A stretch of 64,000 bases of DNA from Lingula anatina (Eukaryota > Animalia > Brachiopoda): assembly GCA_051362555.1 (NCBI GenBank), contig CM120640.1:13392001-13456000 (forward strand), read 5' to 3'. Below, piece after piece: positions 1,917 to 61,559 of the stretch (its first letter is position 1; each line of letters opens with the position of its first letter). A program made the position numbers and the translations under genes. The notes under the pieces were generated by a model that saw nothing but the letters and a program-made list of their open reading frames with translations, did not search any database and had not been told where the DNA came from.

Positions 1917-4360
1917 CTGAGCAAAAATGGAAGAGAATACAGCTCGTCAATGATAATATTTTGAAAAAAGATGTTAAGCCGGTAGAATGAAGGCCTGCGT
2001 CCCATCCTCGGGGCCTTGCGTTCACACCCGTGTCCCGACTGCCCGACCACATTGGGAATACAAGATGTAAGTAGGCAACTACATAAGGCAATTCCGAACG
2101 GCAACAGCGCCTTCAAAAGTCCCATAGAGTAACATCCTAGTTAGGAAGCTTGAATGTTTGGGGTGCGTCTGCCAGCGATCCCAAACATGACTCGAGCTTT
2201 CTGGAGCTCTGCTCAGACTATCGCGGTCTGTTTTCGTCATCTGTTTACTCTTGTTATGAAGCTTTATGAAAGCCGACAGTTCGCTACCTTATGGTAATTA
2301 ACTCCAGGAAGAAAAAAGTCGAGAGAGAATGTGCGGTTATTAGGTTTAGTTGGATAAGAGTTAAGGGAACAGCGTAGCCTATATCACAGGGGGAAGGTGG
2401 ATATATTTAATTGATGACAGACGCGCCATTAAAAATCGTATGATCACGTGTGCATGTTGTCATTGAGCACTGAGAACAAATGGGGGATAAACATTACAAT
2501 CGACTTTTCGAATGGAGGCCGATTATCCAAAAGCTACCTACCCATGAAACTGTGACATTATCATGAATCGTATTGTATTTATACATCAACCTTTTGTGCT
2601 ACAGAAAACAATAATAACCAATATTTTCAATAGCATTTATGAATGAGGTGCTCACGCTCAATTTTATTTGATAGTAAACGCGATAAGTAACGTAGTTTAT
2701 TGGGGATAACTTACGCGAGGCGTAGCCCCAATCCATCATGTTCAATTGTTATCATCCGTTCAACTTCGACCGCAGAGGGTGCATGTGATGTATGTACAGA
2801 CGCATTGCACCTTCTACATGTTGCCCTCAGTGCAAGGTTACATCGGTGATCCTGACTAACTAACACCCTCGTTTTGTTTCGCAGTTTAACTGGGCCCTAT
2901 GCATATTTAACTTCAAGGTATTTGAGATACAGTTATGAATGGACCAGGTGAGAAGCACAACTTGACTTCCACTGTTCAATATTTGCCGATTATTTATTGA
3001 GATGAATAGAAGGAATGTTCTGTACCTCCCGGACTAATGGAAAGGAGTGAGACTGGGTTACACAATTCGGCTTACGCCTAAGGAACTATCTCACGTCGCC
3101 TCAAGACGGGCTTTGTCCGCCATACCACAGCCGTGGGTTGTTAGTCGACCATGATTAATTCAGTAATGCACTTTCTCTCGCACTCCATACCATGTAATCC
3201 AATAGTGTTGTATTATTCTCCTTATCGCTGGCTCTGAAGAAATATCTGTACAGTATTTGGCTTAATAAGCATTATCTAAATATAATAGCATAGAAAACCC
3301 CTGTTTTCACCAGAAATGCCATATCCATAGTACAATGCATGGCGCACAATTGATGTTTTTGGTAAGTTTACGAAAAGGCGAGCAACGAGGTTTCAATAAT
3401 TTGGCACTTTTTCACGACTGACGAATTGAAGCCTACCTGTCTAATGCACGTTTTGGACAAATTATACCATGTACTTAGGTCTACATGATGATTATGTATG
3501 CATTTAGTACACGTATAAATGTATATACAGTGCATCACAGTTATCAGACATCTGCGTCTTTATTTATGATCACTCCTAAAAGGTTGTAAATATATTATCA
3601 TGTATAATGGTTCTACACATTTTCAAAATAGATTGCAATACAAGGTGAGGTAACTAAAGGTATCACGAACCCATGCACCAGATAAGCCTGACCTTAGCAA
3701 GCTGTGCCCGCATTACGGAGACCAGAACAGAACGCTTGAATTGTCCCCGTTTAATCCGTTATTTCAAGGCTGTGCATACACCTTATGTTTCTGTTGAAAA
3801 GATGAGGCAAGATAACTTAACCTTTCACACAAGCGCCCAGAAAGAGCGAAACGAAGCATGTTTTATTAAAAGAAATAACCAAACTGGCACAATTAGATCA
3901 ATTTCAAACTAAGCCATACACGTATAGAAATATGCAATGTTCTCATTATGCTTTATTATGCTTCATTAGTCTCAGACATAGTTCACGCCTCATGGACAGG
4001 CGTGAAAATTCGATCTCTTGCAGTTATAGATTTGCTGCCAAAATTCTCTGGCATATGACATTTTGATGTATCACTGACTTCATGGTTCTGAAAGAATGCT
4101 TACATTCAGTACGGTGTGTTGTTTTTCTAACGTGTATACATTATACACTCTATTCCAACAAATGACAATGGAAGGTATCATGTGATTCTGCCTTTGAGAA
4201 AGACATTTAATGAAAATTTGTATTTCGATTTCATCCGTCCGATAGATTCACATTTGTAACCCTGATTAAACCCATTTAATACTGTAATTAGATAATGTCA
4301 ATATAATCTGCATCACATAGTTTTTGGTTAACAATACACTGATAGAAACATTCCACTTAC

Positions 4361-6639: not shown

Positions 6640-7110
6640 GAAAGATAAGATAAGATAAATATTTATTTTACCAACAAATTATACATTTATATAAAATAAT
6701 CAATATCGTTACACACGCATACCGTACAGTTAACACCTAAGAATTAATATTTTCTATAACGCATCTATAAGGGGCTAAACTATTTCAATTTCTTGTTAAA
6801 GAAGTGCGGTCGGTGTCTTGCCCTTCTCAATTTCACGATGTTCCATTGTATCACTCCATGTTACACTATTGTTCAATTTAAAAAACACCCAATAAATTAT
6901 CGTTTCTTGTTTAGTGACTTCACCGCCAATTTCTTTAGGAGTTTTATAGCTTTGATTTCTTATGTAGCCTACCATAATCTTTTTCGTTTTGCTAACATTC
7001 AAGGTTAAATTGTCACCTGTGAACCAGTTAACTATAGAGGGCGCCGATTGCCTGTGCTCAGACTCGTCATTTTCATGAAATACACCAACTAAGATGGTAT
7101 CATCGGCCAA
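6640..7110 (-). mobile_element. Degenerate non-LTR retrotransposon (Rex1/Babar-like LINE) reverse-transcriptase fragment
   Basis: ORF 6796-7110: ADDTILVG..NDESEHRQ..IVNWFTGDNLTLNVSKTKKIMVGY matches the Rex1/Babar RT pattern YADDT..GLI.N.DES.YR....W...NNL.LNVSKTKE. A short (TCTTA)n tail-like repeat lies near 6642-6660. Confidence 0.75.
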
Positions 7111-10100
7111 TTCACAAGCTTTCTTGGTAAAATAAAGATCAATGTTTGGGCTACTTCACGGCCTTATCGCCTTATCGAATCGCTAAAACAGTGCTGTGAC
7201 TTAATCCAAACCAATGCGTTAGGTGACATCGCAACCTAAACGCTTTCGCTGCCGACACAATCCCAGTGAATGCAGTTATTTAGAGCACCGCTGTCACGAT
7301 TGCCGCTTGCACACTTCTCTGCGCATCATATCGCACCGTTTCTGCTGCAAGTTATTTAAACAGGATCGGTTGTAAAAACCCGCCATACGGCGCGAAATCA
7401 CTATTCACGTGGCTAAGGTCCTTAAAGGGCGGACCGAAACGTCCGATATAATGCTCGCTAGTTAGTCTTGAAATCAAGAATAACTCTGCTTTATCAACTA
7501 TCTTGAGCCACGAAAAATACCTTATATTGTAAGGTTAGTTGTGTTGTTAAACCTGACACCTGCTGATTACTTTCGAAGTGATTACTTCATGATATGAAAG
7601 AAGGGTGGTGATTGATTTCTTACTTTTGTAAACTTATTTACGGCAATCTTGCAATAGGTAAACATTATATTTCTACCCCACTAAATGGCAATGCAATGTA
7701 AATCGCAGCAGTGTTCTACCAGTTATTTTCCTATCGAGACAAAGAAAACAATGTAATATAGTTCAACTGCAGCAGAGGTCGCAAAGGGTCGTTTTGTATA
7801 ATGCCACGGATAGCTTAATGGCCCCGGCGTGTTATGGTTTGTTCTTTTTGAGAGCTGTGATAATATATTGAGCACCTGAACGGAGATCTACTATTTTTTT
7901 TGTTCCATGTAGTAGGCTCGCCTCCTCGGGTGCTGTATAGGCCGAACTCCTTGATAGATTTGCCGAATATACATGCTTTGTTTACCTTTCTTGTTCCCGT
8001 TTTCGTTTATTATTTAGTGAAGGATTAAATTGATTTTCTCTCCGGTCAAATTTTAATTTGACATGTGATCGTTGAAGTCGATCTTTTTTGTGATAAATCT
8101 GACGTGTGCGATAGGGTAATGTAAAGTTTATATTTTTCCAAACATTGGTGCATTTTCGCACACACTGCAAATGAGATTTGTAATTGCCAAGCCGTATTTC
8201 CACGATACCATCATTACATACGTATACCTAAAACGTATAAAATACGTGTTGGCTCCATGTTATGACATGTGTATACATCGAAACTTAATCGCTTTTATCA
8301 CGTGTAACCCGCATTCAATTACTGAAGCGTAACTCGAGATGGACCACTCAATCACTGTAAAGAAACTTAGACTTTGGTTTCAGTCAAGAACTATATCTAA
8401 GATCAACCCAGCAGTAGGTTATGATAATAAGTTGATTCTATAGAAAGAATCACTGAAGTTTGTATCTGCACAAAATGTGTCTGCCTAATATGTTTTCTGT
8501 AATAAGTGAAAGCAACTAAATAAGCAAACACGCTTGACATCAAATATTTTGCTATATTAGATTATTTCTATGTGCGTAAATCAAGATCTGCTTCATTAAT
8601 TGTTAAAAGTTTGTACATAATACAGCTCATTGTAGACACAAGCTGTGGTCACATACATGTGCCACCGTTATGAAGCGCCGACTTCTAGTTCAGAGATGAA
8701 TAGCTTGTGCACTATAAATGTACAAGGACTGACAGCATTTTCCTTCAATTTCCACTTTTCCCCCTTCCGAAAATCCAATCGTAGTCAAGATTTGATTTGA
8801 ATATAGTTTAATAAGCAGAATGATCCATTCAGAATTGGTTAATTTCAAGCACAATAACCCTGCCTTGGGAATATTCTATTTTGCTCGGGGAGATTGCCAA
8901 CTCTAACTCACATTGACTAGATTAATTAAATTCTAAGCTTCTCTAAGGACTTGTTTCAGCTCCCATTGAGCACTAATGCACTGGTAGGGAGGAGGCGTTT
9001 GTGTGAGCCCGTACTTGTTATAAGCTGTGCATTGCTCCATAACTTTCTCATCGATCAGTCAATCATCATTCGATATTTGGTTTATCGACTGGGCTGACTG
9101 ACTAATGTTTGTGTGGACCAAAAGACAATTCATTGAAGACATCGTGTTTTCGTATGAAAGCAGGGCAATTTTTTTGCAATCACGTTCATGTACATCCATA
9201 ATTGATTCTCTTGTGGTTGGTTTGTCACACTCCGTATTAGAGTTAGTTTCTTGCTTTTTATCGTTCAGGATTTTTACCTAACCACAATGTGGAGCGCTAG
9301 AACGAGATCAACACACATGTAGCTTTTGATAATTCCTTTATTACAAATCTTTCGTTTTAGCTCCACAATAAATGTGAAAAGTAGCATTCCAATTAATCAA
9401 TTTCAGGAACTACCATTAGTGCTATATCATGTCGATGTTTAAGTGAACACTCGATCTAAACAAGGACGCTTTTGTGTATAATCCATGTCTACGTAAACGA
9501 TGTTTATTTAATCCTCCTAAAGAATGCTTTATTGATGTACGGGGTAGTTACAAGATATTTAACTATAAGACGGTAGTTTATTAAAATTTTATTTCCGGGA
9601 GGTAGACATGCTCAAGGATGTGCAGGAGAGATGCAGTCGGTGAGTGGGTGTGCCCCTACCATGGAGAAGCGTCCTGACAACCTTAGACGACAATGTTAAC
9701 TTTTTCTACAATGAACCCAGAGGATTGGACGTAGCCCTTTAAGTTCGTACGGAGCACATGTTTCCTTTATTTATCCCATGCATAACCGACAGCAATGGCG
9801 GGCGTTTGGTCAAATATATCAGAAACTGTAGACATGCAATTACCAGAATGACGCTCCCAGGTAATCTTTTAGCCATATGGCATTACCTAGAACAAATCGA
9901 ACCAGGTAACACGAACATTTAGTACTAACATCGGTAATGTTATGTTTGCTCAGTTGATTTGTATCTATTCAGCAATATCACTAGGCACTAGTGCCCATAT
10001 GTCTTGCCCGTGAAATGACCAGGAACACCACGTATAAAAATAATATACTGTTAGATACTGAAATCCACAGCATACAATTTGCAGGGCAGCCAGGTTTTAT

Positions 10101-42416: not shown

Positions 42417-44968
42417 TACACATATGCAGTTTAAAAGCTCCAAAATGAAGTAATGTACGTGGTTTCCATGTAATGTTTTCTAAATCGTTCCTATGTTGGC
42501 GCTCTTTTACAACACTCTTTTGAATGTATCAAATGTCACCAAAATGACTATGGTAGTAATTAAATCCACTTTATCTCCGTCAATAAAGCAGTACTCCTTT
42601 CAATCCTGCTTGATGAACAACTCGGTGCCAGTCTTTCGAATGAAAAAGCGTAATTACCCAAGATAGTTGTAACTAATTAAGCCGCGCGCCTTTGGTTATT
42701 GATCTTGAAAAAATAATGCGCCTACTCTTCGTAATGGGCATGCTTTTCCTTTGTTGGGTTAAAGGACAACTGGATGGACTCGCATTGCAATTTTCAGGCT
42801 TAGCTCCCTGGGCGTGTTAATTACCGATTTTCTCTTTTGATTTTTGAGTTACCACAAGCGTGATCTGTTTTCCAGGAGGTTGTTCTGCCTAATGTTACTA
42901 ATAGATATCCTCTTGTACCTTCACATGTGTTGAATAAGATTGCCCAATATTGCGTAATTTCCCTCAACACATGTGTAGATATATGTTGTGTATGTCCTCC
43001 TTTCAATACGAAAATAACGTCAAAATCGTATAAGGTTGTCTGTGTAACCATTTGCATACACGCACACACACACAAGCACACAAACACACGCGGATTATCT
43101 TGGGGGAGGAAAAAATGATAGCGAAACAAGGAGCGAACAATTATAACTAACACAAAAGCCAGTCGTTATTATTCAATAAAAGATTACCGCTGGAATCTAC
43201 ATGATCTGGCTATTGAACTTGGCGTCTGTTCATGTCCACAGCTGCGCAATGCATTTATCTTAATCAGCGAATGTTTAATTCGTTAATCAAAATATAATAG
43301 TCGATGATCAATAATAGGCGCTTCTTATTATTCGAATTTTGAGCAAATATCCATATCATTCAACTGGCAATTCTTCTGCGGGCTCCAGCACAAGCTAACA
43401 GTGCGCTATTAACAGCTGAACTTTATTTTTCATTTGCAGACATTTATCTACTCCAAAATGTGCCTATTCAGCTGCCTTTCTGTTGTTTTTAGAATACAGG
43501 TTATACAATAAAATCTGCGTATGTAAGATTGCCACCTCTTTGTGATCATAGTAAACATGGGCCGTATGAACCCCGCAGCGGCCTACAGGTGGGAGAGCTG
43601 AGGATACGGCCAGCGTCTGGTCTGGACGCTTAGTCTGACCTGTGGCTCAGATCCTGGCAGGGAGCTATCGCCTGGACACTAACGCTTGACATATTGTTGA
43701 AATGTCAGTTAAATACCAATGAAACTAATAATCATGACGCTGTTGAAATGATTTAGTCTCTGATACGGACGTCTTGTGGCGCATGTTTGGAGACAACCTG
43801 CTAGAATTAAAAATACCCACACTAGATCCCCTTATCAAGTGTTTGCAATTACGTTAGTATGATAAATATACCCCAGAGTATGTTCTGTTATGTGACATTT
43901 ACACGCAGCTTGCTGTGTTGGATGTTTCTATTTTGTGATGCAGTTTTTATTTTTGTTTATCAAGTTTACGGAATGGCTAGTTGAACTGGAAACATTGTAC
44001 AATAAACAGAAATTTTTATTCGTGTCATTAAATTTCATGGTCTAAATTTTTATTCTTCCAGAATTCAGAATCGCACCATTGGTAATGCTATGGATAAATA
44101 TGATTATGTTTGCCTCCTGTAAAATCCTTTACATTTTAGACGTTCCACAAACACAAACACATAATTAAGAAAAGAAAGTGAGTGGGGGGAAACGAAGGAC
44201 TATATATATATACAATATATATATTAAATACAATCTGCAAACGCACATATAGATAGATAGATAGATGGATGGATGGATGGATAGATAGTGTTTATTTATT
44301 AAAGTGACATGTGAATATACATTTATTAAAATATAAACCACCCGGTTTCATGGACCTATAAGTCACCGAGCTTTTATCAAAAACATTACGTTAAGGTAAT
44401 AAGTTATAACAAGAGCAAACATAGGCCTATACATGTATCTATACATGAACACTTGTCTACACATTATAACACCTCATTTAGGATTTCCATAATGTACACT
44501 GTAAACCGCCAGCCTGAACCTCGTCCCCCTCAATTCACAAGTACTGTAGATAGTTCACAAGGGGAAAATAAAATAAAATATTGCATTAACAACCCCTGAT
44601 TTTATCAAACCTTTCCAATGGTGAAAGTCAAGTGAAGATAACTTGACTAGGATAATATTATATTCATGAATGAACAGTTGGGAAAGACCATGAGAATGGA
44701 TAACATACAGTATAACATCTTGCGATTTTGGGTAATACATGAATCAAGTAAGGTTTCCCGGGATCTGGAGGACAAATGATGGCAGACGAGCGAGTGCGGT
44801 GCGACAATGAATTAAAACTGACAGAATTTACACACGAATATTTTTCTTTTTGTTTTCTATTAATCTTAATAAACAACATTAATTAATAAAACCTATACCA
44901 ATTTAAACGTTTAGCACGAGATGAGTCACCGTTCATACCAGAACCGTTCTCCAAGAGATTGTAAGCCT

Positions 44969-45128
44969 GGTGTCACGAAACTGAGGGTCCGTGTAACAGA
45001 AAGTCCGCCTTCCATATGGTTATAATGGTTAGGGTTAGTCTGACCTATGTGGGTCAAAATCTAGGGCGAGGCTCACAAAGTAATGGGAAGCGGACTCTCT
45101 GTCATGGGTGACTTTCTGGTACACGACA
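44969..45128. mobile_element. MITE-like element with inverted repeats and internal GGTTAG units
   Basis: taacagaaagtccgccttcc vs ggaagcggactctctgtca (reverse-complementary); internal ggttagggttag. Same architecture as the 11268-11435 element. Confidence 0.5.
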
Positions 45129-46135
45129 AAAAATCTTAAAAGTAAAAAAGAAGAAAAAAAGAAGACACTACAAATCTCTTTATTCTTTATAAGAAATGAA
45201 TTGTGATTCCTCTATACTAATGAACATTTGGTCAACTGATTTATTAATGCAACTGGTACAAATTAGACTATACGAAAGTCAAAACTGTGATCTCGAAAGA
45301 TATTTAATGCATTTTTCGTTTAATTAATAATCTCAGTCAAACATTGTCATGGATTGCTTCCATAATAGTACACTAACCACGCGTGCATACATAAGACATA
45401 TATTTATATATTAATATACACATGTGCACTTAGCTTTACAGAATTAGCACAACCGTGAGTGAGTATTATAGTCAGGTTAGAAAATTTCAATAGAGACATA
45501 TGGACAAATCCATCTTAAATTGCTAAAACTCACTTTGCAAAAGGGAGATACACGACAGTCAAGATAATACAGAGCAGCCGTGCACAATAAAACACAAAAA
45601 GAAATCCACCCTCACTTTGTTATCAGCACATGTATTCTTTGGCATCGCTGGATATTCATTTGATTTTGATTTTGCTGAAAATATTTGCAACATCGAAAGC
45701 TTGCAACCACACAAGGGGAATGGCAGTTATTGAACTGGAATGGCAGGGTTATACAATGTGTATATACAAAAGGAGTCGGGTTGGTTTATTTTACAGTTTT
45801 ATCAAAGGATGTGTTCCAAGACTGATAGACAAACACAATCGTCTGCTGAGTTTCACTGGATTAAGATCGTTGTGCATAAAAGAGAAAACGACGCAATTTA
45901 TCGCCACCCACCAAAAACTGTGAAGTCCACATGAACGAAGATCAGAGACATGTTTTGCTACCTGAAAACGTCATGCTACGAGTCAACATTTTGTCCTCGT
46001 TCGGCAGTGGGCAGCACGTACATTCTGGTCGTATTTAAACCGATGGAAGTGTATATATATATATATATATACATGCACCACTGTTCCCTTTGGCAACCAG
46101 TCACCATTTGAGTGACGTTCAGCAACATAACACGG

Positions 46136-46591
46136 TTACATGATACCATGTGGTGTGGATGCCAACACAACCAGAGTACAAATTACTATAGCAGCGCTGA
46201 AAGTTATGAGACACAAACGGTCGATCACGTGGGCCGCAAACTTCCAATCAGACGAAACCACCGAACTCGAGTCGTCGTCTTTCATCTTGTCTGTAATGAC
46301 TTTGAGTTCTTTGTAAATATTGCGGAGTTCATTACGAGTGGAGCATGCATGGCTGTCGGAGCTGAAGTGTTCTTTTGAACGGGTGTCGCGGTCCACTTTG
46401 ACGCCCATAAGACCATTTCTGTGGTAGTCGTCGACCTCTGCAACGTTAGCGAGTAGACTGGGGGAATTTCGCTGCTTCTCCTCCATCTTGCGCAGCTTCT
46501 GACGCTGTAGGATGGCCTTTCTGGACAGGTCCTTACCTGGGCGTGACACGAAAAGGATCCATGCCAACCACTCACATATACCATATTTCAC
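46136..46591 (-). CDS. CHRNA7-like: Gene C exon 9 (M3-M4 loop, M4, stop)
   Basis: Acceptor gttctag|GTG. VKYGICEWLAWILFVSRPG...DWKFAAHVIDRLCLITFSAAIVICTLVVLASTPHGIM*. Confidence 0.95.
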   Translation of the reverse strand: MKYGICEWLAWILFVSRPGKDLSRKAILQRQKLRKMEEKQRNSPSLLANVAEVDDYHRNGLMGVKVDRDTRSKEHFSSDSHACSTRNELRNIYKELKVITDKMKDDDSSSVVSSDWKFAAHVIDRLCLITFSAAIVICTLVVLASTPHGIM

Positions 46592-46883
46592 CTAGAACAT
46601 CATTGAGCAAGTAATTAGTCACCCATATAATTATAATAATCAGTCTGAAGGTGTATCATATATCAGTTACTGAATAACATTTATAAAAAAAAAAACACTA
46701 TATTGAGATAAAATAAAAGAATACTTTTTCGCTAAATATTTTCTATAGAGTCATAACTGATGACTGACATTTTGTATACCTAGACTATAAATCAAAGGTT
46801 TGAATGCTGCACGAGCCTATTAAGTTTTATGTAATCATGTTTCATATTTTGTAACATCAGTTTACTACGTGAATTTTCCTCAC

Positions 46884-46993
46884 CCAGCTTGGCATGTCGT
46901 GTGTGTCGTCTGCGCGATGGTGATAACTCAGCACAAGAACTGAAAACACCACCGACATGGAACACAGGGCAAGTATCATTCCAAAGTATATCA
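46884..46993 (-). CDS. CHRNA7-like: Gene C exon 8 (M3)
   Basis: 110 nt, tttactttccag| ... TGG|gtgagg. (V)IYFGMILALCSMSVVFSVLVLSYHHRADDTHDMPSW. Confidence 0.93.
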
Positions 46994-48470
46994 CTGGAAA
47001 GTAAAGAGAGAAAACGCCATGGTCCATCTGTCACAGAGCAAATAAAAAATACAACATGAATATGAAACTTCGACTTGGGATTAAATTAATATGCAAAAGC
47101 GTTTTCGTGCTTCATTCATGTCTTTTCATCAGTGTTCCTTAAATGTTTCATATTAATCCTCAGTGAAATGGAAAATACAGGTAAAATCATGATATACGTG
47201 GCATCATAAAAACAAGCGTTAAAGCAATCATGAACTGATGATAAATATTTGAGTTCCAACAGATTAATGAACCAATGTGCCAAAATCTTACTAAAATATT
47301 GAATACTGCAAAACCTTTTGTAACTATCTAGCACAACGCTATAATTTCTTAAGGATCAATCTATGATCATGCAATCCGCTTAATGTATTCAAACTTCTTA
47401 AGGCAAAACAAGAGCAAAATATAATGAAGTTAAAATAATCACTATTAATTCAAAACGCTTCATATTTTATATAGATCCATTATGTTTCATTCAAAAGCAG
47501 AAGAACCCTTACCGCTGGTCTTCAGGAGGGAGCATGCATGTTAAAAAGGATAGACAAATGAGCATTCACGCTGTGAAATTCAAAGATACTGTATCAATAA
47601 GTAAGCATATGGATTAAAGTACAGTAATGAACAGATCATTATATACAATAGTAAACATTATGTCAATTAGAAAAACAGCATATTAGTAATAGAGTAATAT
47701 CGCCGGTCCTCAACTAAATGGTCAAGGTAGGCGGGGACTATGCAGCACGGATCGTGAATGGACCTCAAACAGCTACTGTATGTCTGAACCACTCTCGCAT
47801 CCAAATAAAGAATTATACAATTGGGGTCCCTCAACTGCCGTAAATAGTTTAGTTATCAAATAAACACGATCATGAACGTTGAGTTCCGAACAGTGTTGGC
47901 AATCTATATCTGTTAGAGGGAATCGTCATTAAATTTAATATCTTTCGAGAATAATCGGTAATAAAACCATTACTGTACGGACAGTATAACTACGGAGAAG
48001 TAAAAATGAGTGCTTTGATTACCAACAAAGACAAAAGAGAAAAATACTTGCACGATTTCGTCTAAATAACAAAATCTGCAAGAAAATGCACGAGCGATGA
48101 CATAAGCAATGGATAAAAGTTTTGTATCAAACAAAGAAAAGTTATTTAAAGTTAATATAACAGATAAAAAAATACAGCAATGTCGTGCTACCCAAGGGAC
48201 TAAAGTAAATCGAATGTTACAATTTTTACAGAAAAGGTTTTTTTAAAAAAGTTTATTTGATTCAAAACAAAACAGGTTATTTAAAAAGATCATCGTTAGA
48301 GCAATGAAGTAAGCAGCAGGGGGAATGCAGCACCATAACATTCCAAGCGCACGAAAAGATTTTTAATGGGACAAGAAGCTGCCTGTTAGAGATGCCATTA
48401 AATTAGCTACAGGGACTCAGCGTACAGGAAACTGCCAATAGCCGCATCGTCTACATATGGTAGACCCTAC

Positions 48471-48557
48471 CTATCAGGGGCACCGCATCAGACGTCTCCG
48501 GTAACACATCTGCTACGATCATTAAAAATACTGTCAGTGACAGCATAATAGTGACGG
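48471..48557 (-). CDS. CHRNA7-like: Gene C alternative exon 7b (M2; Glu at 24')
   Basis: 87 nt, ctttatttcag| ... G|gtaggg. (A)VTIMLSLTVFLMIVADVLPETSDAVPLI. Not in the ORF track. Confidence 0.9.
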
Positions 48558-49290
48558 CTGAAATAAAGCAACAAAAAGAATATACAAGCCGTTGGTTATA
48601 TTTCACCTACAGGCTAAATACTCACTGGTGTCGGAGGTCTACACTTACCTCTTCCATAGGAAGAAATATTAGTATGTTAGAATACATAAAAACAAAAAGA
48701 AGAGCAAGATGAAATCCTACTACTGCAGCATTACGTCACTACGCTTATTGCTTCCTAGCCTTGGGCAGGGCGTTCATAACGTCACCATAAACAAAACGGA
48801 GTGCATGTTATTTTATACTGAGAGCTGAAACAAACTAATCGACGATTAGCGTCTAGTTGCATTGCAGCTGGTTCAACTGCTGCAAGCCAAGTACTGCAAC
48901 ACGTTCGTGAGACAGAGACTGGATCACCAGACCCTTTCGGGGGTTCCCACTAAGAATCCTCTCGCCAACCTTTCAGGGTAAAACAAAGTAAGTGTCATAT
49001 TTTAGCACTGCCATGAAAATGTTTCATAGGAATGGAAAATTGGTGAAAATGAGTATATAAAACGGTAGGTTATATCTGGGGATTATTTGGTGCAGTCACG
49101 CTGTGTGAATAATTGCACGACTAATACCAGATGGTTTCCACTATATTTTGAAATCAATTTGAAACCAAAGCAAGCAGAATGTAACAAGCACTGCAACCCA
49201 CACACTACGTCAAACTCGGCCAATGAACCAACGCGTGCGTCCAGTGGTGCGACACACGGTCTCTCAACGTCACAGCAAATTGCCCCCTAC

Positions 49291-49377
49291 CTATCAAAGG
49301 CACCGCATCGGACGTCGGTGGTAAGACGTCCGCCACGATCATCAAAAACACGGTCAATGACAGCATTATAGTCACAG
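49291..49377 (-). CDS. CHRNA7-like: Gene C alternative exon 7a (M2; Pro at 24')
   Basis: 87 nt, aattttcag| ... G|gtaggg. (A)VTIMLSLTVFLMIVADVLPPTSDAVPLI. Confidence 0.9.
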
Positions 49378-50016
49378 CTGAAAATTTCAACACATGCAAG
49401 TTTCTTAACTGGAAATTGTAACCATTGATAAAAAAACAGAGAGTATAGGAATCACCTGTTGGTTCGTTCGTGACCACAAATACATGGCTACGCAAGAAAT
49501 CGGCATCGATATTTGATATTAATTCAGCAAATATACATGCAATTATAGATCCTTTTGCCGTTAAAATGCAAACTAGAATTCAAATTTACATAACAGAAGC
49601 CCATATACATTCATGCGTGTTATGCATAATAAAAATATAATAATGCAGCTACATTGATTCACATATCAGCAAAGAGCTACTAAACATTTGAAAAGATTAC
49701 ATAAAGAGCATTATATTTGGTTAAGTTATTATCAAAGGAATTGAAATTAAAAAATAAAACCATATAGAGTAAAACAAAAAATTGAATAACTTAAAAGTCT
49801 GAGAAAATCAAACGTCTACCTTTCTACATTCTACAAAAATGTATATGATTTTTTAACTCTTCAGTAAATATGCGTTTGACTCGAGTGTTCATATTTTGAT
49901 GGATTGTCACTCTCATTTAACGAATTGTCACAGAAGGTGATAAGAAATATATATTCTAAGATAAAACATTATTTTATAAATGTACTTATTCGAACTAAAT
50001 CTTTCTCCTTACGCAC

Positions 50017-50214
50017 CAAGTGATACTTTCTCTCCTGCATCCGGTGGCAACATGAACGTCAGGATGGCGAGCAGCGACAGCAGCACACAGGGAATGATGA
50101 GGTTAAAGCCATAGTACAATGTCCGTCTCTTAATGTTGATGGTGTAGGTGACATCCACGTACGGGGTGTCTGGACAGCAGTCGTAGTAGATCTCATTACG
50201 CTTGGCGGTGACAC
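50017..50214 (-). CDS. CHRNA7-like: Gene C exon 6 (loop C, M1)
   Basis: 198 nt, ctttcag| ... G|gtgcgt. [65 protein letters not shown]. Confidence 0.94.
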
Positions 50215-50698
50215 CTGAAAGAATGAAATATCATTCCTTCAAGTACCAAAAGGACAAAATATGAAGTTTGGTGTTAGAACAATGATGATAGACAGAAATG
50301 ATTCCTGGGTGTACGGTGCATCTATCGAAAGCTGGGGTCTCTATATTTTAGGTGCTGATACCCATGCTGCTAAAAGAAACATGTAAATAAGCTATTACAG
50401 TAGGTCGGTCAACGCAATCAATATATATTTGATATACAAGTTGACTCTTAAACCTAATCCTAGGTTCGCTAAAAATATTAGATGGCCCACGTAAAGCAAT
50501 ATAACTTTTTGTACAGTAGCATGAAGATGTATGCGTGTGCATTATTTTTCTGACTTTTATAAGGGAAAAATAATGATGATTTATATATAAAAAAAAAACA
50601 AACAAAATTAACATTGTACGACAATATTATGACGGCAACTGTGTTCTCGTTTAAAAGTAAACTGCTGTTTACAAGTTCATCCATTTCAATCTGATTAC

Positions 50699-50952
50699 CT
50701 AACAAATCCCACTCGCCGTTCTTGATGAAGGACGATATATCGCCCTTTTCGGACTTTAAAACCAGGTCCACCTGAGAGCCATCATAAGACCATGTGCCAA
50801 ACTTCAGTTTACAGAACTGCATGTCGAACGGGAACCACGTAATGTCAATGTGGCAGGAGCTGCCGAACATGCCGGGCGGGATCCAGTTCATGTACCCACT
50901 ACTGTAGATCACAACGTTCGTGTGGTAGGTTCCGTCAAAGGCTTCGCTGGCA
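50699..50952 (-). CDS. CHRNA7-like: Gene C exon 5 (Cys-loop, loop B)
   Basis: 254 nt, tctcctag| ... G|gtaatc. ASEAFDGTYHTNVVIYSSGYMNWIPPGMFGSSCHIDITWFPFDMQFCKLKFGTWSYDG...GEWDLL. Confidence 0.95.
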
Positions 50953-51135
50953 CTAGGAGAAAGGAAAATAAAATAGATGTCTTTTTGAAATTTACAGGTT
51001 CACACAGTTGCTAGAGGTGCACAAAACTATATTTAGTTTGCTTATCGGACATGTAAGTATATCTTATACACGTTGTCGAACAAGAACTTTCTAATGGGTA
51101 CCGTTATATAATTGTCTCAAGACAAATAGGCCTAC

Positions 51136-51245
51136 CTGTTGTACAGAAGAACATCGGGTTTCCATAACTTGCCAGCGGGTATTCGAATTGCAGAAATATT
51201 TCCAAATTCTGCTTCATTCCAAATAAATGTGTAATCTGTCCATGT
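51136..51245 (-). CDS. CHRNA7-like: Gene C exon 4 (loop A)
   Basis: 110 nt, ttttaccag| ... AG|gtaggc. TWTDYTFIWNEAEFGNISAIRIPAGKLWKPDVLLYN(S). Confidence 0.95.
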
Positions 51246-51425
51246 CTGGTAAAAGAAATGAATATAAATGTATCATCGTAAAGTTCACAAGAAGTAGTTT
51301 GTTTAAACTGCTTTACAATCAACTGAAGCCAGTTAAACAAATCCCAATATATCTGGTTTTGTGCAAAGAATATTAAAATCAATGAGAAGACATTGATGGC
51401 TCTTTCTCTAGTGCATTTTACTCAC

Positions 51426-51470
51426 CATGTCCAGCCAAATGTTGGTGTGGATAATCTGATTCTTTTCATC
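51426..51470 (-). CDS. CHRNA7-like: Gene C exon 3 (loop D)
   Basis: 45 nt, tttcttcag| ... |gtgagt. DEKNQIIHTNIWLDM. Confidence 0.95.
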
Positions 51471-53099
51471 CTGAAGAAAGAACACAGAACACCAAATGAC
51501 CCGCTATCGGCTGAATGCTTTCATAGAAAGTGCTGGTTACTTAAGGAAACCCTTGACCTTACTGTTACAATTAATATTTTACAACATGCTATTATCTTTA
51601 AAATTTAAATCAAAAGAATTGTTATTTTTCGGTTATTTATGGTACAGCGGCAGTTTATAAGAACATGAACCTACGACCCTTGTGTACCGACAACCAATAC
51701 AAAAGTATTTATACCACAGTGATCCAGGGCTGAAATAACCTGTTAAAACAGCTTAGCGCTCACTAAAAAACACTTGTTACGATGATACCAAAAGGAAGTA
51801 TATTTATCTTATGGAAAGATATTTTCCTATGCTCCGCAATGCAAACATACACAGAATTAGCATGCGGTTTAGCACGAGTGAATTTGAAAAACACTTTTTA
51901 TGACTACTTTTTTAAATGGCCGCAAGGGATGATAAGATAATCTTAGTGAAGATAATTATAAAAGGTTAAGTTGGAATGTAGATCTACACGTACGAGCACT
52001 AAGTAGCCGCGTAAAAACACCTTCCAGGTATCAGTGCGTGTGGTAATATGTACAATACAGGCAGAGCTTCACCAAAGAACACAGGTCCAAACTTCATGTG
52101 AAGCATTCAATCCGAAATTTCGGTGCACTTTATTTTAGGATAAATCTGTGGTAATCTAACAGAATAAACCAAGCTTCTGACTTAGACAATAGCCTTTTTT
52201 TTACTTTTTGTAAAATAGTCCAAAAATTCTATTTCAAGTGCACTGCAACTTCACTGTCCTGGGTCAAATGCGACTAGAATCCTCGGTAATAAAGTTAAGA
52301 CCAGCCTACCGCATACGTTCTTTTGTAAACCTGGCACATAGAGCACGTAATTTTAACCACAGTAAGCAAACAGCTTTCATGAAATTTTTAGATTGTTTCT
52401 TATATATTCTTTATGTACTCTACAAATGAAACCCAAACGGTTAAAGTCAATGAAAATCATTCACACTAGAAATGGACCTATTGTTTTCAATAGTTTGGCC
52501 TCTAATTTAAACAAAGCTTAAAACTGTCAATTACGGATGTAGATCACCCGTTATGCTTCTCATTCACATAGTATGTAGGCTGACCATTTTCCAATTCCTT
52601 ACTTACGTTATGTGGATAATATACAGCTGTGAATACAAGTATAGTCCACCAAACTCATTGCTTTAACATAGCTTGGACAGGGTTGAGTTTGTAATGAAAA
52701 TATAATAATTGCAATGTATACGAACACCGCATTCTCAAAAATGGCTTTAATATATCCTTACACAATGCTAGGCGTCGACGGCACTGATCCGCGGTGAGCT
52801 TGACATCGATTATGTAACTCTAGAAAACATTTCTTTATAAATTGAAATTGAAAGTTTAGTCGGTCGAGTTAATTTGTATCGTCGTGTTAGTGCCGTATGG
52901 GCGCCGTGCGATATGACCACTATATACATAAAATGCAACAGTGAACAGTGGGGGCTTCTGGTACATGTAGTCTGACATTTATTGCTAAGTTCAAGACAAA
53001 TATTAGAAAATTTGAAAACGTGCTCTAGGTTACAGAAAATGCAAATGGATTTTAATCCAGCTTTGATAAAAAAAATTGTTTACACATAACACCTCTTAC

Positions 53100-53245
53100 C
53101 ACATCCAGAATCTGCTGTAGTGTAAGACTGAACGTAACGTTCAGCACGTCTTTTTCATTGGCAACGGGTCGCTCTAGAACATTGTGTGCTCGATCCACAA
53201 ACAACGTGTCAAGCAGTCTCCTCTCATGCTTTCCTTGGTGAGATT
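53100..53245 (-). CDS. CHRNA7-like: Gene C exon 2
   Basis: 146 nt, cttcttag| ... |gtaaga. (E)SHQGKHERRLLDTLFVDRAHNVLERPVANEKDVLNVTFSLTLQQILDV. Confidence 0.95.
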
Positions 53246-53973
53246 CTAAGAAGTAAACGTTTTAAGTATTAAAATGTAGGTTTCCATACAGACAATTAAA
53301 GCATTGCAAAATAACATAGCGTTGTGTTCAGTGGAGATAACCAATTGATAACACACTGATAACACAGGTATGATGCATTTAATCATTGAATGAAAAGTTT
53401 TCTTATGAATAGCACTTTTCATACAATATCACACGAACATTTTAGAAAGTGTGAAAAAATGAACTGGAGATATGTAAAAAAATTAGCAATGTTCCACTGA
53501 CGTTGCCAATTTGGCGTACCATTTTTGCGGCTATGTCTGGTAACAAGGCAGAGTTCTACGTATTTCTTTCTGAGGGCACACCTGGCAGGTGTATATCATA
53601 TTGCAGGATAACAGATATGTAGACTTCTAGAAACATGCGACATTAAGACATGCACAGCTGGCCTTAACATATCGGTTCCGCCATAGTGATTTTCTTTATG
53701 GAGCATTTGGTTGCACTTGGCAAAGCAGACGATATGAGTTCATGTATCATGAATATATTTAGAATGAATAGAGAGCGAGGTATCTTACAGACGTACAACA
53801 ACCAATTAGATGTGATAATTTATATCTGAGACTGTTAGACGTGTAAAATCATATGATAAAAACGTTTATATATTTGCACTGGGGTTCGGATGAAAACATG
53901 CATATATTCTAAAAGAATTCAATCCTGGGTGATAATTTGGGCATTCAAATACGCATACCCGCCCCCCCCCTCC

Positions 53974-53975
<2 letters not shown>

Positions 53976-54008
<33 letters not shown>
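53976..54008. repeat. (GA)n microsatellite preceded by a C-run
   Basis: Pure GA dinucleotide run in gene C intron 1. Confidence 0.9.
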
Positions 54009-54011
<3 letters not shown>

Positions 54012-57000
54012 AGATACGTTGGCATGTATTCGAAGTATTCGAGCTTTAACTTTTTTCACTATGACACCCTAGCATCAAACTACAAATTGACAGATGTTTG
54101 TTAAAAGACATAATCTAATGTGTAAACCTAGACCTAGATCTGGTAACTCCATTACGGCGGTCAGGGATTCCTAGTCATTTGCGTGAGTTTTTCATGCTGC
54201 CAACTCCACGTTATATCAGCGAGCAGACGTTGTTACAGCATTCTAACGATTTCTAGTTTACCACCTGAAGCTGACGAAGCTAATCGACCACACATATTAG
54301 CATCTGTACAAATACCTGCAGTGTTTGGTCATTTCGGGTCAAAAAGGCAGGGAAACAGAATATGTATTTTTATAATATCTCAAAACCGAGCAGCCCTAAA
54401 AACTTCGACAAATATTAACGAAAACTACTTCCTTTCCTGCACCTCTTATGACATTTCTCTCTAATAGTAAGAGAACAGACAGACTGGAAATAGACGGTAA
54501 CTAACTCTCATTACTCCACTGGTGTATGTGTCCATTCTAGCAATGAGCGCATGGAGGTTTCATTTACAAAGCAATTGCCAGAGATGACCCCTGATCATTT
54601 TTTCTCGGCGTGATGCATACAACGGAAAGCATTTCCTCGTGCAACAGTGTTTCCTCCTAGAGTTTCAAATATTCAAATTTTTATATCCTCTCTGAATAAA
54701 TTATAGTAAATAATATTGTAAAACTTAAAGGAAAACCATAAATCCGTCCAGTATAGTTACCCTTTGTGCAATATACCCCTACGTACAGTAAATACGGGGT
54801 CCGTTTACCTCATAATCAGAACTTTTCATTTCACGTAGAGAAATATCTATCTATCTCAGGTAAGCACAGGTGTTCATGTGGAAAGTGTTTACTTTCCCAC
54901 CCTCTCAATGGTGCTTAAGAACCTCTTCTTTGCTTTTCTTCTTCTAATTTTTTTCCAATTTTGCGTGTCAATATTTTCTTAACAATTTTACAACAATACA
55001 TGGAAAACAAATGAGTATTTTGTGGTGGGGAAATAATAGATTGGTGCAGCAGCAAATACTTTCTCTCATATGCCTGAGCTCCCTGCGGAGTTTCTACCTT
55101 CTTTCCACCGAGTCATTTGTGAAGAATTCGCCAGAGACAAGTTGCAAACCCACTGCACTTAAAAGAAATCTAAAAGCAGTCGCTATCCCCCCGCTCTAGG
55201 GTCATGATGAGGTTACATATTCTTACCGCTGTTATAGAAGATATTTCTTGGTAACTTATGCATCACCCCGGTGCACATGCTGACTTCAATAAAAAAGCAC
55301 AGTATCTGACCCGAGGAAGCATTTACGGACAAGGAGATGGGTAGTTGAGGTAACCTAACTCCTGTTTCGAATTGTAGGTGAGAGGTACTTATCAAGTGTG
55401 ATATTTTACACGCAAACACTCTAAATATGCGTGTTTTAGAAAAATAAACTGGTATCTGTCAGGGGTCCCTTTAATGGTTTGTAATCTTTGTTAACGGTAG
55501 CTGTATACATTTTACCGTTTAGCACGCACGAGCGGGAGTCTATAAGTTCGTGGCTATGCAATGGTTCTCCAGAATAAATACTATTTGCAAATAAAAAGAA
55601 CTATTTTTCATCCCGGAATCACAACCTTCATTTCAAGAATTTCCTTTTGTTTAATTTCATTTTTTATTTGAAGCAATACATTTCTACAAAAATAAAAACT
55701 CAAACACGGGTCTCTATATATAATCAGTAAAGAGATCCTTCGTGAGTATAAATGTTCACAGAAATTCGGAGTATCCTGTGTGATTTATGCGCCTTGAAAG
55801 CAACAGTCATGTGACCGTGATAATCAGGGTTTCCCTCGTGCAATATTGTTCTGAACTCCTTCCAAGTGGTGGTCCATATAGTTCTATCATTGAACGAGTG
55901 ACAGTTGGTTCGCATTGTTATTGAGCTGATAAGAGTTACCTTTTAGAGAAAGAATTAAGAAGTCTCGAGACACCATACAATACCATATTATTGCGTAGAT
56001 GTTTAAACGTCTTGTTTATTTTTGGCTTAGATCTATAGAATTGCTACTCCTTCTCCGGGGGCTCAGTTTTGTGAAATATTCGGACTATCGTCGTTTACAT
56101 TAACAATAAGTAAATCTTATCCCCATAATCGCTGTCGATCAGGTTGAAAATCACGGATTGGCTCAGCGGACCGATTGTCGAGTTCTATACATCTATTCCA
56201 CCCCATTAGGTTTTAACGGAGCGCATTTATTCCATTATATTTATTTTAATGTGGGCCTTTCATGAGCTTGTAATAAACTTTAAATTGGTTAGTTGGAGAA
56301 AAAACACAAGGGCCCCAATGGAGTGTTTATCTAATGAGACAAGAAAAACATGCCTCGACCAGCGAACTGTGTAGAAGCATAGGAGTAAGAAAACTCGTTA
56401 TTTATACGCCTGTGTTGTAACAATTAAATTTTCCCTGTTTTGTCTCTCGTCACCTTAGCGCCAATGTTATGCTACAATCTCAAAGTTGGGGAATAAACCA
56501 AACACAATTATTTCCCCGATTTTGTATTCTTTTGTAGTGGTTTTACAGTTGTGCTACTTAAAAGCAACAAGACGATGAGCATAATACCCAGTGAAGTTGT
56601 TCTTCTTACATAATACGAAAATATTTCCATTCCAGCAATTGTGGGCTTTTTGACATCACCTATTAATAGCCAATGCGTTGGGTGTCTATAAATTCTCAAA
56701 ATGAATATTTTTTGGTTTCCACACCTGTATATGCAGAACTCTTACAGGTGAAAATATATGACTAGCATGTTATCCCAGCGGATAAGGTCTACCTTGCCAC
56801 TGGGCATTTACCTGGGCCAATTCCCAACCTTTCCACAGTTTCCGTGTGTTCTCTTGTACTCCTTGGTGCAAGTGTTGACATAAACTTTACAAAACGAACT
56901 TCTTACCGCACCCGTGGGGGGCAAACACAAGCAGTTTCAACAAGCGGTCCCAGCGAATGTTTGCTGTATCATAACTTTTTAAAGAAAGGTGGAGATCTCT

Positions 57001-57461
57001 GTTTTGTAACTTTTATATATATATATCTGTAGCAGTCAGCCAGTTTTTGCTTTTCTCTTTGTCAACTAAGAATCGGCAAAGAGCACATATTTTTATTTTT
57101 AATTTCTATGTTTAATGAAACTAAGTGAAATCAATGCATCGAATTTTTTCAATAACTATTTTACAAGCGAAAATGAAATACAAATCAAACACTCATGGTC
57201 AACAATGTTCCTCTGCGCACAATAAGCACCACAGACATACAAATCGTTTTCAACGGTTATGCAAACTTCGTGTGCGTTATCTAAATATGTACTTAGTTGG
57301 ATGCATAGGGACATCTCAATGTGTTACATATTATTAAACGTTCTTTTCTTACCATCCATACCTCAGGAAAGAGGTTTATTCACGTTGGACGAATAAAAAA
57401 GCACGACTTTCTCCTAATTCAAGCCAATTATCACCTGTAAATATCAATACAATTTACCAAC

Positions 57462-57525
57462 CTTGAAAAAACACTGTCAATAGCATGGCTAAAGACAGGA
57501 AAAGTCTCTTCGTTGAATTCCCCAT
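57462..57525 (-). CDS. CHRNA7-like: Gene C coding exon 1 (signal peptide)
   Basis: aaatcATGG start, MGNSTKRLFLSLAMLLTVFFQ(E). CAAG|gttggt is a phase-1 donor compatible with exon 2. Confidence 0.75.
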
Positions 57526-58907: not shown

Positions 58908-59459
58908 AGATATTTGTTAGATAAAGCAATAACATAGAGAAGTCAGAGATATTACACAGATAAAATAGTCTAACGAAGAGTAACTCCACAAGATCTATGC
59001 TATCGATGCATCTTCTAGTCTCTCGCAAATATGTCGACGGATGTTATTGATGTAAAAGTCAGTGCGTTTGTGGAGTGCACACGCTCGTGTTCCTGTGTGG
59101 GCAGAAAAGTAGCGTGCCGATCTTAAGATTTTCCATCGAAGCTTGAAACAGTTCAGATATTCGGTTATATGCTGCGTTGTACTAGATATTTGTTAGATAA
59201 AGCAATAACATAGAGAAGTCAGAGATATTACACAGATAAAATAGTCTAACGAAGAGTAACTCCACAAGATCTATGCTATCGATGCATCTTCTAGTCTCTC
59301 GCAAATATGTCGACGGATGTTATTGATGTAAAAGTCAGTGCGTTTGTGGAGTGCACACGCTCGTGTTCCTGTGTGGGCAGAAAAGTAGCGTGCCGATCTT
59401 AAGATTTTCCATCGAAGCTTGAAACAGTTCAGATATTCGGTTATATGCTGCGTTGTACT
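58908..59459. repeat. Exact 276-bp tandem duplication
   Basis: 58908-59183 is repeated at 59184-59459 (agatatttgttagataaagc...gctgcgttgtact), with 2-bp AG microhomology at the junction. Confidence 0.95.
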
Positions 59460-60889
59460 AGTGCACGATAATTGTTGCGTTTTGTAATTGCGTTTAGTAA
59501 ATGACAGTATAATTAATGACACTACGCACAAATGAGTTAAACAATACCGCCGCTACGATCTTATAGTGTTTGCCGTTCGATGACTAGGAAGAACTTTGGC
59601 AACTGTCAGTACACAAAGATACAGTTCACACCTGTAAACTGTGCATACTGATACCGAAATACATCTGACATCTGCCTGGAAGTTCTTGGCGGTAGGTGAT
59701 TGCTTTACTTTTATTTCCTCTTGAAAGAAAGGTAATTAAGTTACTCCCTTTATGGACCCACACAAGATTCAAGTAATAAAAAGATGCCAGACCTGCCCGT
59801 TTGACGCTGTGGTTGTGATCAGTAGGCCTAACACTTTTCCCTTGACTTTTTCGCAATAGTGGGCTTCGTCGTTTAGCCATTAAAAATAGAGTAATACAAT
59901 CAGTCGAATTTAATGCATTTCTCCTTTATTGCCAGTAGTACAGTAATAATAGTAGTAGTGTGGTAGTAGCAACAGTGCATGAAATAGTATTCTCAATGCA
60001 ACTTATGACCAAAAATTTAAAATTCCGAAGAATTTAACATTCATTTTATCAAGTTGTCCATTTCCATTTAAAAATATCAGCGCAAGTTTATGCACAGGAT
60101 ACCGAAAATGCAAAACAATAAACGAAATGTAGGACCAAGCTTGATAACAATTTCAAAAATGTAGCCATTTCATTGTTTTCCACTGTTTCCACAACACTGG
60201 GTCTGTATCATTTCAAATATATTACGAACGACGCCTTAACTAAGCAAATGTTATTATTTACATTTTCCGTCCATAAATAACGATAGGAAAATAATATCCG
60301 ACTTCAAGTTAGTTTCCCTTTAGGACCAACCCACGGGTATATAACACACAATGCACACTGTACATACAGACGCAGACATCTTACCCAACATGTAGGTAGA
60401 AGGCAGCGAGTTTTTCTGCAAATTTCTAAAGCATTTCCCCCGCTAATTTTACCAGTTCCGTTTAGAATTGTTAGGTCCAAGTTCGCAACAGTGAAGAACA
60501 AACAACACGGTGGATTTCAGAAAAGTGTGATCCTTGCTACTACTAGAGTGAAGCAGCCCCTCCCCGCCCCACCTCCACCCTTCTTTAGTCCGTGTTTTGA
60601 TAGATATTGTATACGTATGGATTGACCGGAGGCCTGGAGGTGACATACCTGTACCAGCCGTGGTAGACATACATGTACGTAACACTGACGGGGGCTATTT
60701 GTCAGCTCTAGTGACTAGTAACAATGACATATAACTCCTCATATTGTACACTACTGTACCAGCAGATTCTTATGTTTACATGTAGTTATCATACCTGAAA
60801 TGCATTCCCAATTCTATTAAGTAAGCATTCATAAAGATAAGTGTGAATGACACTATTTTGATTCTTTGCAATTCAAATGAATCCCACAT

Positions 60890-61087
60890 TCATGAAAGCT
60901 TGAAAACATTTTCTCTCTCCTTTTCCCAGACACCTCTTAGATAAGCTTTAGTTTTCTCATCTGCAAAGATGAGGTCTATAGATTTGTAGGAAATGTCCCA
61001 GAGTTTTTCTTGACTTAACTCAAATGTCTGTGCTAGTATGCTATACTCCTCTGACAGTGTGGTGCTGAACACCCCCTTGTCGTCAGT
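60890..61087 (-). CDS. ADAL: Adenosine deaminase-like protein (N6-methyl-AMP deaminase), last coding exon
   Basis: Acceptor tcatttcag|. TDDKGVFSTTLSEEYSILAQTFELSQEKLWDISYKSIDLIFADEKTKAYLRGVW...*. The TDDKGVF motif and C-terminus are characteristic of ADAL. Confidence 0.9.
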   Translation of the reverse strand, partial: TDDKGVFSTTLSEEYSILAQTFELSQEKLWDISYKSIDLIFADEKTKAYLRGVWEKERENVFKLS

Positions 61088-61559
61088 CTGAAATGACAAA
61101 AAAGAAAGGATGGTAAAAATGATAGCAGTACTGTTTGTTAATTTTGATCCCTCTTTGTCAAACCAGGTCAGAAGACATTACAAATCTGTTCAGTTACAGG
61201 TTACTTTGTCCACTTTGATTCTTAGACTAAAATGATCCTGCATTAAGTTTACCAGTTCTGTTTGTGAATTTTGTCAAGCAAGGTCAGAAAATTTTGCAAA
61301 TTTGTTCATTTGAGTGGGCCTGGATTGGGTTTAATCAGATATAATCTGATATAGATGAAAGCAATGTGCCATCACTCAACTAGTACATTATATTTCCACA
61401 CCACAAAGCAGACCACTCCTGTCTTCTTGTCATCACTAGAATAGAATTTAACTAGACTAGAATTTAACCAATTCTCAGTCTTAAGTTTTTCTGTCATAAG
61501 AAATTTGTTGATGTTCATGACTGAAAAAATATATATATAAGAAAATTCCTAATACTTAC

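Follow-up and report, generated by a model that had tools for sequence, protein, structure and literature searches.

Two mutually exclusive M2 exons in an alpha7-like nicotinic receptor gene of Lingula anatina encode subunits that differ at a single position

The window analysed here, a stretch of 64,000 nucleotides from Lingula anatina, contains an alpha7-like nicotinic receptor (nAChR) subunit gene, gene A, in which the exon for M2 and the M2-M3 loop is present as two tandem duplicated homologous copies with intact splice sites, exons 7a and 7b (Table 1). RNA reads from gene A show that the two copies are used exclusively and in a sample-dependent manner, and the proteins that result differ only at position 24' of the M2-M3 loop, which is proline with 7a and glutamate with 7b. 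We assign a probability of about 60% to the reading that the splice choice of Pro or Glu at 24' tunes gating and that the duplication arose separately from that of insects.

Table 1. Coordinates of gene A, its alternative exons and nearby candidate elements, and of gene B, in the window
Feature	Position	Strand	Remarks
Gene A, coding span	46136..57525	minus	alpha7-like nAChR subunit of 489 aa, from a first codon near 57525 to the stop codon at 46136
Exon 6 of gene A	50017..50214	minus	loop C (including the vicinal cysteines), M1 and the GEK motif; joined downstream to 7a or 7b
Exon 7a, M2 and M2-M3 loop	49291..49377	minus	Pro at 24' (codon 49316-49318); RefSeq isoform X1, XP_013406821.1
Exon 7b, M2 and M2-M3 loop	48471..48557	minus	Glu at 24' (codon 48496-48498); RefSeq isoform X2, XP_013406820.1
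Exon 8 of gene A (M3)	46884..46993	minus	common downstream partner of 7a and 7b
TGCATG (Rbfox-type motif)	49393..49398	minus	13 nt before the 7a acceptor AG, in the weak pyrimidine tract; candidate 7a repressor
Second TGCATG upstream of 7a	49536..49541	minus	putative function
Two TGCATG (47538-47533, 47373-47368)	47368..47538	minus	downstream of 7b, in the intron before exon 8; candidate distal 7b enhancers
Gene B, alpha7-like	about 32260-23618	minus	XP_013406819.1

Results

Gene A and its duplicated exon

The protein specified by gene A matches the Pfam families PF02931 (Neur_chan_LBD) and PF02932 (Neur_chan_memb) above cut-off and contains a Cys-loop starting at C155 as well as the vicinal cysteines of loop C (YYDCC at 216-220). 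Its closest solved relative is human alpha7 (E 2.5e-147, against 3e-100 for the next non-alpha7 subunit). Exon 6 matches at 100% the Lingula anatina neuronal acetylcholine receptor subunit alpha-7 isoform X1, and the protein cluster of gene A has two members, the RefSeq isoforms X1 and X2, which differ only by P293E; both isoforms are thus already in RefSeq, through automatic annotation. From the GEK motif, which occupies G267-E268-K269 (-2', -1' and 0'), we infer that the channel is cation-selective. With K269 counted as 0', residue 293 is 24'. No Rfam match was found within 44000-56000.

Exons 7a and 7b are 87 nt each, have equal phase, intact AG acceptors and shared G/GTAGGG donors, and are identical at 70 of 87 nucleotides. 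Their 28 whole codons comprise 13 identical pairs, 14 with a synonymous difference and one with a non-synonymous difference, CCG in 7a vs GAG in 7b, that is, Pro vs Glu. The codon that is split with exon 6 (GCT vs GCC, both Ala) provides a 15th synonymous difference, and the count of 15 synonymous differences and one non-synonymous difference made in a first-pass annotation of this DNA is exact for the window. At 49357 every covering RNA read departs from the window base (63/63 in X6, 2/2 in X5, and 1/1 in each of X2 and X9), which means that the window has either a rare allele or an assembly error at this site. The change is synonymous, and because the RNA base equalises one Leu codon of the two exons, there are 14 synonymous differences in the animals sampled for RNA. 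A-to-I editing was rejected as its source, the sense-strand change being T to C, which is the wrong type.

The repeat that comprises 7a and 7b reaches only a few bases beyond the splice sites, and similarity among the three flanking introns is at chance level (best cross-intron blastn E 0.25); equal length, phase and donor combined with unrelated flanks are as noted in the first-pass annotation. A profile search in all six frames found no third M2 copy in gene A.

The pattern of substitution between the copies is strongly skewed toward silent sites. Of about 22 synonymous sites 14 are changed vs 2 of about 62 non-synonymous sites (Fisher p about 1e-8), and 9 of 15 four-fold sites differ. By the method of Nei and Gojobori dS is 1.36, a rough value given the few sites, and dN is 0.033 (ratio 0.024); with the RNA base at 49357 dS becomes 1.09, for a dN/dS range of 0.024-0.031. 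The dS of 7a or 7b vs the M2 exon of gene B, a neighbouring alpha7-like gene, is 1.5-2.0 and so of the same order as that between 7a and 7b, which argues that the split between them is old. The earlier proposal of an old duplication followed by purifying selection on both copies is borne out by a dN/dS of about 0.03.

Exons 7a and 7b are used one at a time and differently between samples

We examined eight Lingula anatina RNA runs (X1-X7 and X9), picked by species label, taking about 6% of the reads of each large run and 25-30% of each small run, and listed a splice joint only when it had at least three reads from at least two start sites. All four junctions that had been proposed (exon 6 to 7a or 7b, and 7a or 7b to exon 8) are present in X6, where 7a has 43 upstream and 48 downstream junction reads and 7b has 14 and 19, respectively. 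The share of 7a in X6 is therefore 72-75% (43/57 upstream, 48/67 downstream), a strong use of this exon that was seen in this single run, with about 6% of its reads examined. Exon 7b is the form in most samples scored: upstream and downstream counts for 7b and 7a are 24/38 and 0/0 in X5, 13/37 and none in X4 (with zero depth over 7a), 8/8 and none in X7, and 3/4 and 1/0 in X9. In X1, X2 and X3 the expression of gene A was too weak to score either exon. Neither a joint of 7a to 7b nor one of exon 6 to exon 8 was listed in the eight runs, with rarer events possible below the threshold. The exons are thus used one at a time, and the possibility that only one of them is ever used is contradicted by X6, which splices both.

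Counted by distinct read starts, exon use in X6 differs from that in X5 or X4 (Fisher p about 1e-9 to 5e-9); in X5 the share of 7a is at most about 11% (95% upper bound). The runs X5 and X6 have three exonic variants in common, at like fractions (p 0.70-0.85), which is consistent with the same animal or pool and makes genotype unlikely as the cause of the exon difference; most likely this difference reflects tissue or condition.

Read depth over the introns (46994-50016) is roughly 2-17 in X6, compared with 70-100 in exons, and far above that in the other runs. This signal, found in the one sample that mainly uses 7a, represents either retained introns or nuclear RNA. Because these unspliced reads fill every bin between 7a and 7b, the two exons are physically in tandem.

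How exon choice could be set

Several general means of enforcing exclusive use were considered and set aside. Gene A transcripts that include both exons and those that skip both are open frames, so nonsense-mediated decay can neither enforce exclusivity nor hide such transcripts. Steric blocking, including that by a distant branch point, is unlikely in view of the 733-nt intron between 7a and 7b and of an AG-free zone before 7b of only 47 nt. Pairing between RNA docking and selector sites was rejected since helices near the splice sites are at chance: across seven pairs of 150-nt flanks searched for competing intronic helices, 3 to 34 of 40 shuffles were as strong. A stem with arms at 49468-49448 and 49242-49222 brackets 7a, and the fold around 7a is no better than that of shuffles (z 0.05).

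The acceptors of the two exons are unequal, with 11 of 20 pyrimidines in the tract before 7a vs 16 of 20 before 7b; four other acceptors examined are as weak as that of 7a or almost so. The hexamer TGCATG occurs 10 times in the 4613 nt of introns beside the alternative exons of genes A and B vs 2 times in the 8022 nt of ten other introns (p 0.0012, rank 2 of 3386 hexamers), an enrichment of a motif that was spotted by eye before testing and six of whose ten copies come from gene B. Its reverse complement, at 3 vs 1, is without such excess. In the literature, Rbfox binding upstream of an exon weakly correlates with repression and binding downstream with inclusion (PMC3967051), and mutually exclusive exons of C. 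elegans are under RBFOX/UGCAUG control (PMC3585155). In gene A UGCAUG is placed, on post hoc inspection, as in the Rbfox rule, before 7a and after 7b; the two copies after 7b sit 0.9-1.1 kb away. This arrangement suggests control of the 7a/7b choice by an Rbfox-type protein, which we treat only as a lead because the motif was seen before the test was made.

Position 24' and gating

The equivalence of 24' with GlyR K276 and with the Lys or Arg of GABA-A gamma, put forward in the first-pass annotation, agrees with Table 1 of PMC2233691 and with PMC3222680. The former gives this column as Lys in GlyR, Lys/Arg in GABA-A gamma, Ala in alpha7, Ser in alpha1-4 and alpha6, Glu in muscle beta/gamma/epsilon and Pro in beta2/beta4, and equates it with K276E; the latter names GlyR K276 as 24'. 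That PETS vs PPTS distinguishes subunit classes fails for alpha vs non-alpha, as both vertebrate forms are found in non-alpha subunits, PET in muscle beta/gamma/epsilon and PPT in neuronal beta2/beta4 (PMC2233691).

Substitutions at this position can have large effects. In GlyR alpha1 K24'A raises the EC50 45-fold, and in the GlyR beta subunit the same change is without effect (PMC3222680), so that 24' is not sensitive in every subunit. The GABA-A gamma2 mutation K289M concerns the conserved linker lysine (PMC11309982). The mouse muscle nAChR has alphaS266 at 24', and across six constructs the gating equilibrium varies 1000-fold; all substitutions lower it, with mostly modest effects on desensitisation (PMC2429975). 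In the Torpedo receptor S266 packs against the Gly-Glu of the beta8-beta9 loop of the neighbouring subunit, and S266A causes a 4.4-fold loss; four loop residues changed together have almost no effect (PMC10899235). By analogy with these receptors, the swap of Pro and Glu at 24' likely alters gating, in a direction that is not predictable. Pro or Glu at 24' is not among the mutations found in the main texts on this position, and a search of the open-access literature found no recording of either Lingula isoform.

In order to place the P/E difference within the family we compared 103 distinct M2 peptides, obtained from 236 of 354 proteins fetched. Of the 28 columns only 21', at which 7a and 7b have the same residue, is more variable than 24' (2.46 bits), where P, Q, A, S, E and T are all found and Glu is present in 10 of the 103 peptides. 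Within-gene exon pairs differ at 24' in 7 of 8 cases vs about 77% of random family pairs, and the frequent difference was therefore rejected as a sign of selection. Given this variability, a single tolerated change would often land at 24' regardless, and the comparison gives no backing to the contention that a one-residue toggle is what preserves the two copies.

Origin of the exon pair

A tree of host genes was built from 37 rows chosen from hits, with exon 6 and the M2 exon excluded, using a quick search and SH-aLRT support only. It places gene A inside a spiralian clade (98), apart from arthropod alpha6/alpha7 (97) and weakly sister to gene B (80), and by this tree gene A is not an arthropod alpha6 orthologue. 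Gene B has one M2 exon. Exons 7a and 7b are the nearest rows to each other (0.037 vs 0.2 or more) and share 27 of 28 residues, including a Met at 8' found in 4 of 103 peptides, which implies that they split after gene A had taken its own path. The 28-column tree of M2 alone leaves 7a and 7b unjoined in the best tree, and a p-AU of 0.38 neither backs nor rejects their clade; the sequence pattern speaks against matching each of the two with a different insect exon (8a, 8b or 8c). The duplication most likely arose separately from that of insect alpha6 exon 8, judging from these sequence comparisons. Of the two origins previously proposed, convergent with or ancestral to the insect cassette, the data favour the convergent one, which the 28-column tree cannot prove.

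Other relatives provide further context. Among nemerteans, five full-length Lineus isoforms and two from Tubulanus were compared, all with a single M2 version. From 57 metagenome loci 25 reach the M2 exon, and 24 of these 25 have a single copy, on short contigs in which copies can be missed. The remaining locus (L056), on an animal contig and of another nAChR subfamily, has tandem 87-nt M2 exons at 1339-1425 and 1893-1979 that are identical at 55 of 87 positions and have intact AG/GT sites. Protein searches yielded no orthologue of gene A in another brachiopod or in a phoronid. Pro is found at 24' in gene B and in the nemertean, Capitella, chiton and snail relatives; since the nearest relatives carry Pro, 7a would be ancestral and 7b is probably the derived copy.

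The outside sequence closest to the Lingula exons is, in a tie, an odonate 8c-type peptide, which agrees with each of them at 23 of 28 residues. Tandem M2 peptides also occur in a barnacle protein (P0101), which has Glu and Thr at 24', and in Macrostomum (P0007, P0090-P0092), and the protein P0246 has three copies; these protein copies were read from gene predictions that fused them.

Neighbouring genes and other features of the window

Gene B carries two intact, same-phase 198-nt exons for loop C and M1 (27582-27385 and 26889-26692, minus strand), of which the annotated protein uses only the downstream copy. The 495-nt intron between them contains four TGCATG. The same exon pair is found in Lineus isoforms, in Capitella, in Macrostomum and at the metagenome loci L001 and L002, and looks old across spiralians. 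A search of genes A and B for further copies of exons 2-9 found only the M2 pair of gene A and the exon 6 pair of gene B. In nemertean alpha7-like genes, further mutually exclusive exons are suggested by Lineus/Tubulanus isoforms (P0019/P0079/P0081 and P0024/P0084) that have equal length and differ in the regions of exons 3 and 4.

A third nAChR-like gene lies near 1911, with first exons at about 1774-2140 (minus strand), and runs off the window, which thus holds three receptor genes in tandem. An exon at 60893-61177 (minus strand), probably the end of an upstream gene, weakly resembles adenosine deaminase (PF00962, E 7.4e-06, short of the curated cut-off). At 58995-59552 there is a direct repeat of about 180 bases, with the same 60-residue translation at 58995-59192 and 59271-59552. 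A short frame at 6796-7155 (minus strand) resembles a decayed reverse-transcriptase fragment of a retroelement.

Discussion

The reading that we favour is that gene A yields, through 7a or 7b, two subunits that differ only at 24', and that its exon was probably duplicated within the Lingula lineage. The Pro exon would be ancestral and the Glu exon derived, and the difference between samples would be one of tissue or condition and not of genotype. Splicing factors would make the choice, with repression of the weak 7a acceptor by an Rbfox-type protein as the best lead. Residue 293 would then sit against the beta8-beta9 loop and the pre-M1 basic residues of its surroundings; by motif homology we take G201-E202 and R237 to be the Lingula counterparts of the Torpedo Gly-Glu and Lys, respectively, with the loop contributed by the neighbouring subunit. 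Replacing a rigid Pro-Pro with Pro-Glu at this point would shift the closed-open equilibrium and the EC50. Little effect would be expected on the binding site or on ion selectivity, because all pore-lining residues are identical.

Gating need not, however, be what keeps both copies. Under exon-level subfunctionalisation the copies would have been split among cells, which would make both of them necessary and keep both at the M2 sequence, and the change from Pro to Glu would have been tolerated with little effect on the channel. Any copy in use must encode a working pore, which alone accounts for a dN/dS near 0.03; 24' is a highly variable position at which Glu is found in about a tenth of the peptides, exon use is near all-or-none between samples, and the single-step intermediates between CCG and GAG (Gln and Ala) are common at 24'. 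Against this, a change from Pro to Glu is radical and took two nucleotide substitutions within a single codon. The copies agree at 21', the column that varies most, both exons are spliced in X6, and substitutions at 24' in muscle nAChR and GlyR alpha subunits shift gating 4- to 1000-fold in the published measurements cited above. We regard this explanation as clearly less probable than the gating reading, of which it is the strongest competitor.

We consider it improbable that 7a and 7b go back to an M2 cassette of early protostomes from which insect alpha6 exon 8 and the flatworm copies would also stem, and which was later homogenised or re-duplicated in Lingula. The tandem M2 copies of insect alpha6, barnacle P0101, Macrostomum and P0246, and the match of the odonate 8c-type peptide to both Lingula exons, would fit such a history, and the loop C/M1 duplication that gene B has in common with several spiralian phyla indicates that old cassettes persist in this family. 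Yet 7a and 7b agree in all but one residue, the rare Met at 8' included, gene B has a single M2 exon and the nemertean isoforms a single M2 version, and the one metagenome locus in 25 with two copies belongs to a different subfamily. That the pair is an assembly artefact or contains a dead copy, through collapsed haplotypes or a 7a pseudo-exon, is far less probable still. Exon 7a is absent from X4, X5 and X7, and one of its reference bases is contradicted by all reads, but the junction reads of X6, which join both exons to the same neighbours, refute this reading. Collapsed haplotypes, named in the first-pass annotation as a way in which the pair could prove spurious, are further contradicted by the unspliced X6 reads that cover every bin between the copies, by the unrelated flanks, and by a divergence of 17 in 87 bases between the copies, compared with 8 sites listed across the 198 nt of exon 6 at which the most divergent run departs from the window.

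More broadly, and at somewhat under even odds, Lingula may have an insect-independent, tissue-controlled splice switch whose output is one residue at the hinge between binding and gating, in a receptor family that repeatedly duplicates its M2 exon. If so, the pair would amount to a naturally occurring comparison of Pro and Glu at 24'. Considered with the tandem M2 exons of the barnacle, the flatworm and other sources, it would mean that one exon has been duplicated repeatedly to tune gating, and Rbfox control might be shared with the loop C/M1 exon pair of gene B. Two natural isoforms that are one residue apart offer a clean test, in an alpha7-type channel, of the role of 24', a position that is linked with startle disease and epilepsy through related receptors. 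The pair also bears on the reasons for the repeated duplication of M2 exons. The principle itself is not new, both isoforms were in RefSeq beforehand, and the host is not a standard model organism; what sets the pair apart is its one-residue output and its probable independent origin.

Convergent tandem exon duplication in ion channels has been surveyed in human, fly and nematode (PMC9741552), and the exons in that survey are, like 7a and 7b, old, tissue-specific, mutually exclusive and often convergent, with enrichment in ion channels. The text of PMC9741552 has no passage with 'single amino acid' or 'one amino acid', and its tables may hold such pairs. A search of the open-access literature found no description of the Lingula pair, of its regulation or function, or of lophotrochozoan nAChR exon pairs. 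The best-known counterpart is insect alpha6 (Dalpha6), whose alternative exons 8a/8b/8c, correctly cited in the first-pass annotation (PMC1919356), are described in several papers (PMC1919356, PMC6393475, PMC12309072). They represent the same exon of an alpha7-type subunit, which spans M2 and the M2-M3 loop in 28 whole codons, and as in Lingula they are tandem copies used one at a time that mostly differ at 24' too (Thr/Ser vs Gln). There are three copies in insects and two in Lingula, and one insect exon dominates (8b > 8a > 8c), whereas use in Lingula switches between samples. The insect copies are 6-7 residues apart, including pore-facing ones, whereas the Lingula pair differs only at 24'. 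The functional meaning of insect exon 8 diversity is called elusive in PMC6393475; that the copies differ at many residues is part of the difficulty. At the level of the protein, GlyR alpha1 K276E, GABA-A gamma2 K289M and muscle alphaS266 concern the aligned position of the M2-M3 loop; those mutants are disease or laboratory changes from Lys or Ser, whereas both Lingula residues are natural and chosen by splicing.
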